NCBI GenBank assembly: GCA_023255625.1
Contig: JAHFLF010000001.1
Span: 185,766-249,765, forward strand
Direction of reading: 5' to 3'
DNA: 64,000 bases
Origin: Candidatus Harrisonbacteria bacterium
GTDB taxonomy: Bacteria > Patescibacteriota > Minisyncoccia > UBA6257 > 1-14-0-10-44-23
A program made the position numbers and the translations under genes. The notes below the pieces were generated by a model, which had not been told where the DNA came from, did no database searches, and saw only the letters and a list, made by a program, of their open reading frames with translations. Positions 223 to 4,678 of the stretch are shown here, in pieces; positions within the stretch are counted from its first letter, which is position 1, and each line of letters starts with the position of its first letter.

Positions 223-485
223 ATGGCTGTATTCTAGGCCTCCAGGTGAAGACGCGCAAGTTGTAGGTAATCTTTTTTGAAGGTATCATATACGCAACAA
301 CTTAATAGCAGTGTGACCTAACCTCTCCGAGCAATCGGGCAGCATGGTCTTAAGCCCTCAACAGTAAAAAGCTCCTAGTCAGAGCGCTGTTGAGGCCATA
401 TCGGGAAACTGGTATGGGTGCCGCAAGGCATCGCTGGCTGGGGGCTTTTTGTTCGTCAGCCAGCATAACGATTAAAAATATCATT

Positions 486-1205
486 ATGTTTGCACTCGTT
501 CTGATTTTGCTTTTCGTGGTGATCTGTTTGTTGGCAGCGGGCATTATGCGTCCCACCTCGCTGAACTGGGCGTTTAGGGGCAACAGTAGCCGAAAGAAGG
601 TGTTTTCTGTGTTCGGTCTGGGCGCAATAGTTCTGTTTATCATTTTGACCGTGATAACGCCGGGCAGTCAGGATAGCGCCGTCAGTGTCAGTTCGGCTCC
701 GGTTGCTTCGACACCTAGCAGCCCGGTTAGTCAGCCGGTCGCGCAAACTGATCAGCAGAAGCTGGAGGCCGTCGCGCGAGCTGCGTTGAGTGATAACGGC
801 GCCTTACAGGTTTCGTTCAAAGAGGCGGTTATTGAGAAGGACGACCCGATCCGGCCGAAGGGTTCAAGGTTTGTGACCGTTGATCTTAATACTGGTGATT
901 TTTTTAACAAGGACGAGTTCGTGCAAGATAGCAGCAAAGTTTCCTCTGCTATTTTCCAGAATGCCTTTCCGGTCAACGGCAGCTTCTATGATGTGCTGGT
1001 CCGCTATTTTGGTGCCACTAAAGATGCTTACGGCAACACCAAAGATGATCTCATCATGTCTTACACCATCGACCGGCCGACGGCCGCAAAAATCAACTGG
1101 CAAGGGTTTGATCGAGAGAGCCTGTGCTCGTTCCTAAAACAGGAAAGCTCCGCGCAAGGCGGCAATGCTTATGTTGGCTGCAACATGCTGGTGAATATTC
1201 AGTAA
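486..1205 (+). CDS. Hypothetical membrane-anchored protein (2 N-terminal TM helices, Ser/Pro/Val-rich linker, C-terminal soluble domain)
   Basis: ORF 390..1205. The internal Met at 486 (MFALVLILLFVVICLL...) starts the hydrophobic N-terminus. No recognisable family. Confidence 0.5.
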   Translation: MFALVLILLFVVICLLAAGIMRPTSLNWAFRGNSSRKKVFSVFGLGAIVLFIILTVITPGSQDSAVSVSSAPVASTPSSPVSQPVAQTDQQKLEAVARAALSDNGALQVSFKEAVIEKDDPIRPKGSRFVTVDLNTGDFFNKDEFVQDSSKVSSAIFQNAFPVNGSFYDVLVRYFGATKDAYGNTKDDLIMSYTIDRPTAAKINWQGFDRESLCSFLKQESSAQGGNAYVGCNMLVNIQ

Positions 1206-1247: not shown

Positions 1248-1736
1248 ATGGATAACCCTATTAGGATAGAAACGCTTGAGAAGGTATTAGATCGTCAAAT
1301 TGCGTGGATTGAGTCCGCAAATACCCGCACCGCTACTGCGATCACTCTTGCAACTGCGATGCTTGGCGTTCTTGCAGCTCTTAGTCCGGCAAAGGGGCTA
1401 CCATGGACGTGGCTACAGTGTCTTTTTGTAGGTCTTTCAGTTTTGAGCCTACTCCTCTGCTTGCTGATGTGCGTACTCGCCGTGTTCCCGCGCACCAAGG
1501 GGCCGGAAGACTCAATGATTTTTTTCGGACCGATTGCTAGGCGTGATCGCAAAGACTTTATTGCGGCAGCTAAAACGCTTACTGCTGAGGAGTATTCGCT
1601 CGATCTTGCAGCACAGGTCCACATAAATGCTCAGATCGCAAAAACAAAGTTTCGTTGGGTGCATTGGGCGATGCGAGCCTTCTTTGTCAGTATTTTGCCG
1701 TGGGTAGTGGCGGTTTACTTCTTTTATCAGGGTTGA
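1248..1736 (+). CDS. Small 3-TM membrane protein; candidate membrane effector partner of the downstream cyclase (Pycsar-type TM effector-like)
   Basis: 162 aa. Hydrophobic segments ATAITLATAMLGVLAAL, LFVGLSVLSLLLCLLMCVLAVF and FFVSILPWVVAVYFF. Its TGA stop lies 5 nt before the cyclase ATG, on the same strand. SD-like taggtgg sits upstream. Confidence 0.6.
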   Translation: MDNPIRIETLEKVLDRQIAWIESANTRTATAITLATAMLGVLAALSPAKGLPWTWLQCLFVGLSVLSLLLCLLMCVLAVFPRTKGPEDSMIFFGPIARRDRKDFIAAAKTLTAEEYSLDLAAQVHINAQIAKTKFRWVHWAMRAFFVSILPWVVAVYFFYQG

Positions 1737-1741
1737 TTTTT

Positions 1742-2437
1742 ATGAGCTTAGCTGATGACCTACGCAAAGAAGTCAGGGATATCTTTCAGGCTCGGTGGTA
1801 TGAACGAGAGGGCAGAGATGTTCCAGATACGGAAAATATCACCCTCAGCAATGAGGCCGTAACTTTAGACGGCACCGTCCTATACGCCGATCTTGTTGCG
1901 TCAACTACGCTCGTCAATTCACGAAGTTCTAAGTTTGCGGCGGAGATTTACAAAGCTTTTTTATATTGCGCAGCGAAAGTCATCCGAGAGAGCGATGGTG
2001 AGATTACGGCCTACGATGGAGACCGTATTATGGCCGTGTTTATGGGCGGCTATAAAAATACCAATGCGGCAAAGGCAGCTCTCCGGATTAACTGGTGCAT
2101 GGATGAACTAGTTAACCCTTTGATGAGAGACCAGTATCCCGATAAGGCTACGGACTCGTATCGAGCAGTTGTCGGTATCGATACTGGCAAGCTGTTTGTC
2201 GCGAAGACAGGCATCCGCGGTTCGAATGACTTGGTTTGGGTCGGTCGCGCGGCAAACTATGCGGCAAAACTTTGCGATCGTCGTCTTGCCAATTACAACA
2301 CATGGATTACCGCTGACGTCTATAACAAATTGGACGGAGTCGCTAAGATGACTTCTGGCGAACACATGTGGCATACAGCTACATGGGAGGTAAGCGGGCA
2401 AACTATTTATGGCTCTACTTGGCGGTGGGCCGCATAA
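1742..2437 (+). CDS. Minimal stand-alone class III nucleotidyl (adenylyl/guanylyl/pyrimidine) cyclase domain protein, PycC-like
   Basis: Internal start MSLADDLRKEV at 1742 within ORF 1655..2437. Cyclase homology-domain motifs: TVLYADLVASTTL (metal Asp), YDGDRIMAVF (second Asp), GIDTGKLFVAKTG, DLVWVGRAANYAAKL (Asn/Arg transition-state residues). 232 aa with no regulatory domains. Confidence 0.7.
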   Translation: MSLADDLRKEVRDIFQARWYEREGRDVPDTENITLSNEAVTLDGTVLYADLVASTTLVNSRSSKFAAEIYKAFLYCAAKVIRESDGEITAYDGDRIMAVFMGGYKNTNAAKAALRINWCMDELVNPLMRDQYPDKATDSYRAVVGIDTGKLFVAKTGIRGSNDLVWVGRAANYAAKLCDRRLANYNTWITADVYNKLDGVAKMTSGEHMWHTATWEVSGQTIYGSTWRWAA

Positions 2438-2444
2438 TGCGGGT

Positions 2445-4439
2445 TCATTTCTTAGCCTCGCTGATGGCTTTCGTAGCTTTTTCTTTCGCCGTCTTCTGTG
2501 CCTCACTATCAATTTTTCTGTATTCGGGCAGTATCCAAACGAAGAGCGGTATCAAGCATTCGGCTACACCTAAGCTTAGTACGAAATATCCCAGGTTAGG
2601 ATTGTCGGCCATGATTGTTTTGATGCCGAAATATGTAAGCGCAGCTCCGATGATCAAAACAGCTAGACCTTTTGCAAATAACCACCATCGCCTTCTACGC
2701 TTCTCTTCGCAATAAATCTGATCGATTAACACCGTCATCACAGCTGCACTATAGCCAGCCTCTTTTTTAAGATCGCCGCCCATCTCCTCAACTCGTCCCT
2801 CAAGCCTCTTCATTTCATCGTCAGCAGTCATTTTTTTGCGCTGGAAAGTCCGCCGGATCTCCAGCTGAAGCTCACTGTCATTCTTTGATTTCCCTGCCAT
2901 TCTCAGGCGACGCATTTTTGCTGCGAATTGTTGGATATCTTCGGTACTCAGTTCTTTCGCCCTTTCGTCTAGATCTAAAAGTGCATCTAAGTCCTCGAGT
3001 GTATATACGCGATCGCTCGCGTGAAGGTCCTCTCTGATGATGGTGCCAAACAATGGAATAAAGTTTTCGGGCTTGTGACCTGGTCCACCAGATGAAATCG
3101 CCAGTATTTGAACAAGGGTATCGATGCCAATCCAGGCCGGAGGTTTCGCTCCAGCCCATCGGGCCGCGAGAGTTTGCATGGGCCCGTCGGAACTTATGAT
3201 CCAAGACTTTGTCCCTCTTCCGCGCAGACACTCCAACACACTATCTAAGGCGGCGTCGTGGATGGTCGAATGCTTTGATTTTTCGTAATGTCTTTGAGCT
3301 TTCCATTCAGCTGCAATTTCAGTCTGCTTTTTTGTGTTCTTTCGTCCAGCTTCAGCAGCAATAGCGACTTCTGGATCTTCCAGCCTTACTATTTTTTCAT
3401 CTCCGATTTTATCTGGAGCATATTGTATGGAGTCAAAAAACCTCGTGAAACTTTCTTTATCTACACAACCACGTGCGAGTGCCGTTTTCAGAAATGGATC
3501 TCTCGCGTCTTCAATGACATCTAGTGAATAGTTGCCAATAGCTCTTAGTGCTTCGCCCCTCTTCCTTGCCACGACTGACTCATATTCATCTTCGGTTTCT
3601 CTTGTAACGTAAAAAGCTGCCTCGATGTGTTTGATAGAAGCTGCAAGAGCAGAAAATGCAGATGCGAGCCGGCTCTTCTCTAGTGCTGCGACGAAAAGAA
3701 CATTCGTATCAAGTAAAAGGCTGGAGCTTTTGAACTCGCTTATTGAAAGAGGGTCTGGTCCCGTTGCTGCTGTAACGAGCCGAGCGGATAGCATCGCTTG
3801 AGCAAATGACCATATCTGTTGCTCGACAGCGATATCTTCATGGTCGCGCAAAAAACTGTTGAAGCCATCGATAAGGTGTGTCTGGTCTTTTTCTAAATGA
3901 TACTCGCCGATGGACGTTGTAATGATATTTTTTATCTGCTCTGCGTCCGGTAGTTTCGCGGCCTCGCGCTTTAGACGCTTGGCCCAAACCTCACCGAACT
4001 TGCCAAAAAATGCAGTTGCAGCATTTTTAAACCACGCTCTCAATGTCGCCCGATCTATCTTCGTACCAAAATGCTTATCGAGGACGTGATCAATCCGTCG
4101 TTCAGCATTACTCAGATCTATTTTTATTCGCTCCGACTCCTCGCTCTTTAGAAACCAGAACTTCCCTTGCTTGATGACGACGCCTTTGTCTTTCAAAAAC
4201 TCTAGCCCACCTTGCACGTCTTGGGGTATGAGATTTCTAACACCAACGATACGCGCGGCTTCCGCGCTGATTTCTGTAAGCCGAGCCTTCTTCTCTGGCT
4301 GAAGGAACAAGATCTTCGTAATGATCTCAGCAAACGCACGCGTTTTTAGTGACCGCGTACCGGCATCGTAGTACAAATGTGTGGGTACTAATAACTCACG
4401 TAGCGACTCAATTTCCAATGATTTTTGCGCGTCATTCAT
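2445..4439 (-). CDS. Large hypothetical protein: N-terminal winged-helix-like region, PIN-like nuclease domain, long charged coiled-coil, C-terminal 2-TM anchor
   Basis: 664 aa. SSLLLDTNVLFVAALEKS (PIN N-terminal Asp motif) and SWIISSDGPMQ (C-terminal PIN-like Asp). C-terminus WWLFAKGLAVLIIGAALTYFGIK...LSLGVAECLIPLFVWILP is hydrophobic. Convergent with the cyclase operon. Confidence 0.5.
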   Translation of the reverse strand: MNDAQKSLEIESLRELLVPTHLYYDAGTRSLKTRAFAEIITKILFLQPEKKARLTEISAEAARIVGVRNLIPQDVQGGLEFLKDKGVVIKQGKFWFLKSEESERIKIDLSNAERRIDHVLDKHFGTKIDRATLRAWFKNAATAFFGKFGEVWAKRLKREAAKLPDAEQIKNIITTSIGEYHLEKDQTHLIDGFNSFLRDHEDIAVEQQIWSFAQAMLSARLVTAATGPDPLSISEFKSSSLLLDTNVLFVAALEKSRLASAFSALAASIKHIEAAFYVTRETEDEYESVVARKRGEALRAIGNYSLDVIEDARDPFLKTALARGCVDKESFTRFFDSIQYAPDKIGDEKIVRLEDPEVAIAAEAGRKNTKKQTEIAAEWKAQRHYEKSKHSTIHDAALDSVLECLRGRGTKSWIISSDGPMQTLAARWAGAKPPAWIGIDTLVQILAISSGGPGHKPENFIPLFGTIIREDLHASDRVYTLEDLDALLDLDERAKELSTEDIQQFAAKMRRLRMAGKSKNDSELQLEIRRTFQRKKMTADDEMKRLEGRVEEMGGDLKKEAGYSAAVMTVLIDQIYCEEKRRRRWWLFAKGLAVLIIGAALTYFGIKTIMADNPNLGYFVLSLGVAECLIPLFVWILPEYRKIDSEAQKTAKEKATKAISEAKK

Positions 4440-4678
4440 AACTGTTTCAATAAACTAGCACTTTCCCCTAGTTTTGCATAGGATCTTTGATCGTCCGACA
4501 ATATAGCGAGCGACACTGGAGTGAAGATAGGCTCGGCTTGGTACCAAAACGCTACTTGAGCGCCGCCGCCTATTTACCCTAAAACAAAACTGGACGCCCG
4601 CTTTGGACGTCCAGTTCGTGATTTCCCTTATGAGTACTGCATTTCTGCCGTTCAACCGGCTGGGACTGAAGCGCTCGT

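Follow-up and report, generated by a model that had tools for sequence, protein, structure and literature searches.

The 64,000-nucleotide (nt) stretch of Candidatus Harrisonbacteria contig JAHFLF010000001.1 analyzed here (positions 185,766 to 249,765, hereafter the window) carries on its reverse strand an open reading frame (ORF) of 664 amino acids (aa), whose product we interpret as a stand-alone, membrane-anchored nuclease of the PIN family acting as a single-gene conflict or defence module. We place the joint probability of this reading, that is, of a membrane-anchored PIN nuclease that also has a role in defence or conflict, at roughly 0.5. That the protein is a membrane-anchored PIN-fold nuclease is very likely; a role in defence or inter-element conflict has somewhat better than even odds, and the specific mechanism of a triggered RNase set out below is less likely than not. 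As predicted, the protein combines a cytoplasmic winged helix-turn-helix (wHTH), a connector, a PIN domain with an intact D-E-D-D set, a post-PIN segment, a charged helix and a membrane hairpin. The gene and its parts map as follows, with confidence in the model given as the predicted local distance difference test (pLDDT) and TM standing for transmembrane helix.

2445..4439, reverse strand: the family gene, 664 aa, ATG start, stop codon at 2445-2447
4146..4352, reverse strand: predicted N-terminal wHTH, residues ~30-98
3762..4145, reverse strand: all-helical connector, residues 99-226, from structure model and conservation
3120..3728, reverse strand: PIN-like nuclease domain, residues ~238-440, from predicted fold and conservation
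3708-3710 (D244), 3585-3587 (E285), 3255-3257 (D395) and 3186-3188 (D418), reverse strand: candidate catalytic residues, from conservation
3276..3542, reverse strand: helical insertion of ~90 aa in the PIN domain, residues ~300-388, from predicted secondary structure and high pLDDT
2880..3119, reverse strand: conserved post-PIN segment, residues 441-520, from pLDDT and conservation
2679..2876, reverse strand: charged helical stalk, residues 522-587, with EEKRRRRWW as its membrane-proximal end
2529..2678, reverse strand: membrane hairpin, with TM1 at residues 588-606 (nt 2622-2678), a 12-aa loop, and TM2 at residues 619-637 (nt 2529-2585)
2448..2528, reverse strand: Lys/Glu-rich cytoplasmic tail, residues 638-664 (family median tail, 27 aa)

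The nuclease assignment draws on both conservation and predicted fold. Across an alignment of 134 full-length, diverse relatives with 21-68% identity to the query, D244, T245, H394 and D395 are 100% conserved, N246 and E285 are retained in 99% and D418 in 91% of the sequences, and Y286, K387, D483 and L484 are conserved at ≥90%. The persistence of D244, T245, E285, H394, D395 and D418 over such divergence indicates an active site under selection. Judged from the alignment, conservation of the acidic residues goes far beyond chance and matches the canonical four-acidic-residue signature of PIN enzymes. Indeed, the contexts of these residues, namely 'LDTN' after a strand, 'T..EY', an 'HDA-helix' and 'hhh-S/T-D' after a strand, reproduce the classic PIN signature. 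A first-pass annotation of this DNA had singled out SSLLLDTNVLFVAAL (residues 239-253, nt 3681-3725) and WIISSDGP (residues 413-420, nt 3180-3203) as PIN motifs, and both proved to bear invariant or near-invariant residues among the 134 relatives.

Structure prediction leads to the same fold. The full-length AlphaFold (AF2) model is of moderate quality overall (pLDDT 75.8) and confident over residues 240-440, and a second model of residues 228-500, computed with 35 diverse sequences, reached a pLDDT of 87.1 and a predicted template modelling score (pTM) of 0.84. Five predicted parallel strands (240-243, 275-278, 348-352, 412-416 and 436-438) form the sheet of a predicted three-layer alpha/beta/alpha fold of the PIN domain-like superfamily (Pfam clan CL0280), and the four acidic residues take canonical positions relative to the predicted strands and helices, which bears out the PIN fold that the first-pass annotation had proposed to look for in a structure model. 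The structural neighbours of this domain include the PIN domains of Rrp44 and DIS3L, Nmd4, SMG5, EST1A/SMG6, Utp24/Fcf1, HARP and VapC; no FEN-type or other DNA-cutting PIN-like enzyme appears among the structural matches listed. Because all close structural relatives (VapC, Rrp44 and Nmd4/SMG6-type proteins) are RNA endonucleases, RNA would be the most likely substrate.

Two further parts of this region deserve description. The helical insertion sits between the E285 helix and the H394-D395 motif and carries its own conserved positions (D314, F316, A320, R323, C325, F334, F335, P342 and K387); E285 and D395 lie 110 aa apart, and in VapC toxins the corresponding Glu-to-Asp spacing is ~55 aa. 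The post-PIN segment comprises a loop modelled with low confidence (448-474) and, in 'EDLDALLDL', the D483-L484 pair that hardly varies in the family, and we speculate that it serves in regulation or oligomerisation.

By sequence searches alone the domain is hardly recognizable. The best Pfam match of the 664-aa protein is PIN_3 over residues 241-312 (E=0.0023), whose 19.2 bits fall short of the cut-off of 27; the protein reaches none of the gathering thresholds of the Pfam PIN models and has no NCBIfam match. Of 61 relatives searched individually against Pfam, 15 matched PIN_3 at E<0.01 (best, 3.8e-5), two each matched PIN_12, PIN_8 and PIN, and a few matched the winged-helix models TBPIP, MCM4_WHD, MCM_C or HTH_45. 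Whether searched by sequence with the protein alone, with the full profile or with that of the domain, the PDB returned only compositional coiled-coil or TM matches and a non-significant hit to the AF0591 PIN protein. Predicted fold and motifs place the catalytic domain in the PIN-like superfamily, yet it falls below every curated sequence threshold.

The N-terminal winged-helix character noticed in the first-pass annotation is borne out by the predicted elements of residues ~30-98 (helix 31-46, strand 51-53, helices 54-65 and 72-84, and a wing of strands 88-91 and 94-97). This predicted wHTH is moderately basic, with a net charge of +5 over residues 30-100 by hand count from the sequence, and it resembles winged helices that bind DNA and double-stranded RNA (dsRNA). 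The connector that follows has no identifiable fold relative, Pfam and PDB searches mapping nothing to residues 99-226, and aromatic or hydrophobic residues make up most of its conserved positions (F124, W136, F137, F145, L189 and F196).

At the other end, residues 522-610 are predicted by AF2 to form one continuous helix, and 41% of residues 500-580 are charged. A coiled-coil ending in two TM helices had been proposed for this part of the protein; the long, charge-rich helix stands, whereas a coiled-coil is not demonstrated, and we prefer the term 'long charged helix' because the heptad periodicity of the stalk is marginal (p=0.06 versus shuffles). The character of the stalk is kept in the family and its sequence is not: after R530 no position is conserved at ≥65% in the 134 relatives. 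PDB matches to the stalk, such as VAMP2 (E=0.003), are compositional only.

Both predicted TM helices hold up. The two segments score 1.83 (588-606) and 2.28 (619-637) as Kyte-Doolittle 19-mers, and exactly two C-terminal hydrophobic segments with a loop of ≤20 aa occur in 122 of the 134 relatives at a slightly relaxed threshold. Lys and Arg residues in the relatives average 3.6 over the 12 residues that precede TM1, 0.4 within the loop and 2.9 beyond TM2, a distribution that, under the positive-inside rule, indicates a predicted N-in/C-in hairpin without an external domain. As conservation does not extend beyond residue 530, this hairpin is better regarded as a plain anchor than as a pore, receptor or ligand-binding sensor.

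The protein had been called an orphan, which holds in that no curated family covers it and fails in that relatives exist. A word-indexed search recovered 15 of them with 42-68% identity, nearly all of ~660 aa and one a 499-aa fragment, and a profile built from close relatives retrieved 678 proteins at E≤1e-3, and 235 at ≤1e-30, from 1.84 billion cluster representatives. Almost all of the proteins found by the profile are 640-700 aa long and align end to end. Word-indexed homologue searches started from the wider family alignment and from the PIN-domain alignment added no relatives, a metagenome scan yielded eight family loci, most of them already known, and a search of 185,579 species-representative genomes with the close-relative alignment found no close relative of the 664-aa protein. 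The family is unnamed, fairly large and coherent.

The argument for a role in conflict comes from the surroundings of the family genes. We judged 16 distinct loci by inspection, considering neighbours within about 6-10 kb on short contigs and without a background control; read with these limits, 13 of the 16 carry recognized defence or mobile-element genes and three are uninformative or housekeeping-like. The 13 loci are the following, where R-M stands for restriction-modification.

This locus: Pycsar, and two tyrosine-recombinase genes a few kb beyond on a longer contig with an identical gene
P0008: an upstream serine recombinase/HTH_36/DUF5659 element, and a HerA-type ATPase that follows the family gene directly (within 40-130 nt)
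P0007: a type I R-M system, a PDC-S32/AbiJ-like protein and NYN
P0004: Dam- and Dcm-type methyltransferases and an MzaB-like ATPase
P0011: a type II methyltransferase and a restriction enzyme
P0013: a Dam-type methyltransferase
P0016: SIR2, a Dcm methyltransferase and two serine recombinases
P0065: an integrase and a PemK toxin
P0045: a Dcm methyltransferase
P0025: a LexA-like repressor and an overlapping SLFN_AlbA_2 gene, just after a ribosomal/RNA-polymerase operon
P0087: a dCTP-deaminase-like gene that overlaps the family gene, and a TIR-TM gene in convergent orientation
L027: a PDC-S41/Schlafen-helicase gene immediately before the family gene
L023 (68% identical): a convergent serine recombinase

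These neighbours vary from locus to locus. All-vs-all BLASTP of ORFs ≥40 aa within 6 kb at ten loci uncovered DNA methyltransferases and serine recombinases as the only neighbours in common. When 128 neighbour ORFs were pooled and searched with PADLOC, the top-ranking matches listed were to methyltransferase models only, a result that yields no usable figure for enrichment. A conserved partner or antitoxin gene was likewise rejected, as no small neighbour ORF is common to the ten loci. With neighbours that vary and no partner shared in the ten-locus comparison, the family travels with defence and mobile DNA as a stand-alone gene. The claim that the protein is not housekeeping is thereby strengthened, since the family is sporadic and 13 of 16 loci have defence or mobile genes, one well-sampled locus being housekeeping-like; a check of neighbourhood conservation, as had been suggested, did not find the homologues consistently in housekeeping operons.

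Three of these loci show further arrangements. In the distant family member P0025 (L018 9078-13878, and L019), an apparent operon consists of the LexA-like repressor, a 108-aa ORF, the family gene, SLFN_AlbA_2 (20-nt overlap) and ORFs of 61 and 231 aa; the insertion immediately follows rpoB-rpoC-rpsL-rpsG, a setting reminiscent of the window gene, which also adjoins a ribosomal operon. P0087 has an identical layout on three independent contigs (L020 119-4223, L021 and L022), with a 273-aa dCTP-deaminase-like gene (Pfam DCD) overlapping the start of the family gene by 4 nt and a TIR-TM protein convergent downstream (PADLOC PDLC03016, E=1e-9). The P0008 relative (L003/L004) bears the NCBI label 'Candidatus Pacearchaeota archaeon', yet its contig has sigma-70 genes and an hrcA-grpE-dnaK-dnaJ cluster of bacterial style, which could reflect a misassigned bin or a passage of the island between domains.

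In the window, the gene lies between the end of a ribosomal-protein/RNA-polymerase cluster (rpsI, rplM, rplQ, rpoA, rpsD, rpsK, rpsM and infA) on its upstream side and a Pycsar pair on the other. The flanking features are these.

4587..4617, reverse strand: intrinsic-terminator-like hairpin, a 13-bp stem followed by a T-run, directly downstream of rpsI
1248..1736, forward strand: PycTM effector, context only (PADLOC E=8e-47; Pfam PycTM 2e-16)
1742..2437, forward strand: PycC cyclase, context only (PADLOC E=1e-92)

The 239 nt upstream of the 664-aa gene contain the terminator and no conserved ORF, and the ~150 nt between terminator and gene leave room for a promoter of its own. At its other end the gene converges with PycC, as first described: PycC ends at 2437 and the stop codon of the 664-aa ORF begins at 2445, a gap of 7 nt between stop codons. 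The strong terminator after rpsI and this convergence together make the gene its own transcription unit. Where the two genes meet, a small hairpin with a T-run (2430-2442) straddles the stop of PycC and the 3' end of the 664-aa gene.

The Pycsar pair, PycTM plus PycC, is complete on its own. Pycsar is present beside a family gene at one of the 16 loci, this one only, and the 664-aa protein matches no PADLOC Pycsar model, nor was a cyclase or a cyclic-nucleotide-binding domain recognized in it with Pfam or PADLOC. Membership in Pycsar was rejected on the grounds of the missing PADLOC match, the convergent orientation and the 15 other loci devoid of the system. Given the complete pair, the convergence, those 15 loci and the lack of a conserved neighbour, the 664-aa protein is best taken as a stand-alone gene and not as a Pycsar component. 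Each of the two has a protein with two TM helices, and both sit in the same islet. Of the two options offered by the first-pass annotation, an islet with two independent systems or a single-gene effector resembling abortive infection, the former is the better.

Other features of the islet were recorded alongside. The PycTM gene precedes PycC with a 5-nt gap, the reverse of the usual Pycsar order of cyclase and then effector. Directly upstream of Pycsar, on the same strand, a 271-aa ORF (390-1205, forward strand) encodes a TM region at the N-terminus followed by a C-terminal domain; neither Pfam nor PADLOC has a family for it, and it matches the phage protein family phrog_8263, of unknown function (E=2e-5). 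Upstream of and overlapping its annotated start is a LOOT RNA (Rfam RF03000; 315-432, forward strand; 79.4 bits against a gathering threshold of 46.4), the sole Rfam match in the window, and ARAGORN found no tRNA or tmRNA genes in the 64 kb. On an 11-kb Logan contig from SRR14366772 with an identical 664-aa gene, two Phage_integrase genes (386 and 313 aa) lie beyond Pycsar and a 263-aa membrane protein, along with several unannotated ORFs and then an aminotransferase gene. This arrangement suggests that a mobile or defence island has integrated here and makes up the whole region after rpsI.

Comparison with described systems places the protein near several of them and inside none. VapC-type PIN toxins (PIN_3 PF13470 or PIN PF01850; for example M. 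tuberculosis VapC26, PDB 5x3t) have the same D...T..E...D...D motif set, with 'LDTN' after strand 1 and 'hhhS/T-D' after strand 4, and the weak PIN_3 matches fall in the N-terminal half. However, the 664-aa protein is about five times larger, its PIN domain is interrupted by the ~90-aa insertion and fused to wHTH, connector, stalk and membrane hairpin, and no antitoxin gene adjoins it. Membership in type II VapBC was accordingly rejected, a 664-aa multidomain protein standing against a small toxin of ~130 aa, with no conserved small ORF beside it across ten loci.

DS-3 (PIN8, WP_022645725.1), a single-protein anti-phage system of E. coli from DefensePredictor, has a PIN domain split by a large insertion, works without an antitoxin, requires its catalytic Asp and Glu for defence, and has been proposed to be controlled by auto-inhibition (PMC13092281). 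The 664-aa family likewise consists of one gene without antitoxin whose PIN motifs are split by a large helical insertion, and the equivalents of the essential Asp and Glu are invariant or nearly so. Unlike the 664-aa protein, DS-3 is 340 aa long and lacks both a wHTH and a TM segment. When aligned with the family PIN-domain profile by hhalign, DS-3 had nothing in common with it beyond the 'DTN' motif; homology to DS-3 or to DS-5 (WP_021513009.1, PIN_12) was rejected at hhalign probabilities of 4.4% and 6.8%, respectively, values whose sensitivity is limited by the single-sequence templates.

For membrane tethering the precedent is SNIPE, a membrane-anchored GIY-YIG nuclease that cleaves phage DNA during injection and becomes toxic when its anchor is removed (PMC13190303). 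Both are single proteins in which a membrane anchor is combined with an elongated helical part, a module that binds nucleic acids and a nuclease, the last three all lying in the cytoplasm, and in both tethering is a plausible safeguard against self-damage. Their domains are unrelated, however, with DUF4041 and GIY-YIG in SNIPE and wHTH and PIN in the 664-aa protein; the SNIPE anchor is N-terminal and mostly single-pass, whereas here it is a C-terminal hairpin, and SNIPE cuts DNA while the PIN relatives of the 664-aa protein cut RNA. We rejected membership in SNIPE, as the protein has no Pfam match to DUF4041 or GIY-YIG, no PADLOC match and a C-terminal anchor, and retain a shared design principle only. 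Tethering of a PIN domain by TM helices is also known from the YacL-type PIN-TRAM proteins of COG4956 (TTHA0540, PDB 3ix7), of which there are ~2,000 sequences, almost all bacterial (Matelska et al., PMC5499597). These have four N-terminal TM helices and a TRAM domain and, unlike the 664-aa protein, neither wHTH nor insertion.

By analogy with DS-3 and SNIPE, a triggered, membrane-tethered defence PIN would be a reasonable reading of the family. The enzyme would be kept harmless in uninfected cells, probably by auto-inhibition; the restraint might be exerted by membrane tethering, by auto-inhibition in cis, or by both, and in the second case the wHTH and connector would take the role that the VapB antitoxin has in trans. 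Infection, or foreign nucleic acid entering at the membrane, would then release or position the PIN active site, which would cleave RNA and thereby stop phage gene expression or arrest growth of the infected cell. The gene would act independently of the adjacent Pycsar, both sharing a defence or mobile islet downstream of rpsI.

The same architecture could instead serve direct immunity at the site of entry, in the manner of SNIPE: sitting constitutively in the membrane, the protein would sense incoming phage nucleic acid or the injection machinery through its wHTH and connector and cut the invading genome while it crosses, with self told from non-self by location and the host surviving. The logic of an anchor, a nucleic-acid-binding domain and a nuclease is that of SNIPE (PMC13190303), and the wHTH is moderately basic and resembles winged helices that bind DNA and dsRNA. 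Moreover, since the predicted anchor is a plain hairpin without external domain, the whole protein would face the inner leaflet, where genomes enter. Nonetheless, we hold this explanation to be unlikely: the structural neighbours of the PIN domain are RNA endonucleases, with no DNA-cutting PIN-like enzyme among the matches listed, neither the DUF4041 nor the GIY-YIG domain has a homologous counterpart in the protein, and the architecture is reversed, with the anchor C-terminal. About as unlikely, or slightly more so, is a gene that benefits its island instead of the host, either as a fused addiction gene of the toxin-antitoxin kind or as an exclusion gene against plasmids or integrative and conjugative elements. 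Recombinases or integrases adjoin the gene in at least five loci, a PemK toxin lies near it in one, and VapC-type PINs are classic toxins of toxin-antitoxin systems (Matelska et al. 2017, PMC5499597); on the other side, there is neither a separate antitoxin gene nor a conserved small neighbour ORF, no family member was found on PLSDB plasmids, and many neighbours are bona fide anti-phage genes and not transfer genes.

Dependence on a partner is improbable. In such a scheme the protein would be an effector or accessory subunit of Pycsar here and of HerA, a dCTP deaminase or a Schlafen-like helicase elsewhere, and tight spacing would favour it: the 7-nt stop-to-stop gap with Pycsar, the overlaps with the DCD-like and SLFN_AlbA_2 genes (P0087 and P0025) and the HerA-like ATPase close downstream in P0008. 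However, a different neighbour occurs at every locus and none recurs, Pycsar has its own PycTM effector and the 664-aa protein no recognizable cyclic-nucleotide-binding domain, and the convergent orientation excludes co-transcription with Pycsar. More improbable still is a housekeeping membrane RNase akin to RNase Y or to the YacL/COG4956 proteins, engaged in RNA turnover or processing at the membrane. The gene does adjoin ribosomal or RNA-polymerase operons in two loci and has housekeeping neighbours only in one. Yet the family is rare and patchy, as judged from its 678 members among 1.84 billion cluster representatives and its absence, as close relatives, from the 185,579 species-representative genomes; its gene neighbourhoods are unconserved and dominated by defence and mobile-element genes, and a terminator separates the ribosomal operon from the 664-aa gene. 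COG4956 proteins, for their part, are conserved and not known to be borne on islands.

Several observations weigh against the stand-alone defence nuclease that we favour. The association seen in 13 of 16 loci comes from inspection without a background control, and one well-sampled locus (L017) has housekeeping-like genes only. No model in PADLOC or PHROGs matches the 664-aa protein. No family member was found among PLSDB plasmids and GenBank phages, searched with tblastn, or among IMG/VR viral contigs. The GC content of the gene (0.467) is close to that of the window (0.476), and compositional foreignness was rejected on this basis. Finally, our proposals for the trigger, for the substrate (RNA or DNA) and for the outcome (abortive or direct) are guesswork.

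Defence by PIN nucleases, tethering of defence nucleases to the membrane and PIN proteins with a membrane anchor are each already known. What is new is the combination of a wHTH, a connector, a PIN domain with a ~90-aa insertion, a post-PIN segment, a stalk and a C-terminal hairpin in an unannotated family that, by inspection, is enriched in defence islands; PADLOC (v2.0.0, 2023), Pfam, NCBIfam and PHROGs all lack this architecture. If it is a defence system, it would be a widespread (~680 sequence clusters) and easily testable single-gene immune module, and it would link PIN nucleases that act alone with membrane tethering that keeps a dangerous nuclease off host nucleic acids. The conserved residues allow catalytic and anchor mutants to be designed directly. 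A bolder possibility, which we consider rather unlikely, is an independently evolved 'spatial' immune PIN nuclease that its C-terminal hairpin holds at the inner membrane face and whose winged helix captures entering nucleic acid, so that phage or plasmid genomes, or their first transcripts, would be destroyed at the point of entry and the host spared. Were this true, the family would represent a second, structurally unrelated solution to the SNIPE strategy, operating in ultra-small bacteria like those of the candidate phyla radiation (CPR), whose immunity is little known. The gene also offers a handle on immunity in small-genome, hard-to-culture bacteria, the present example being one that adjoins a Pycsar system.

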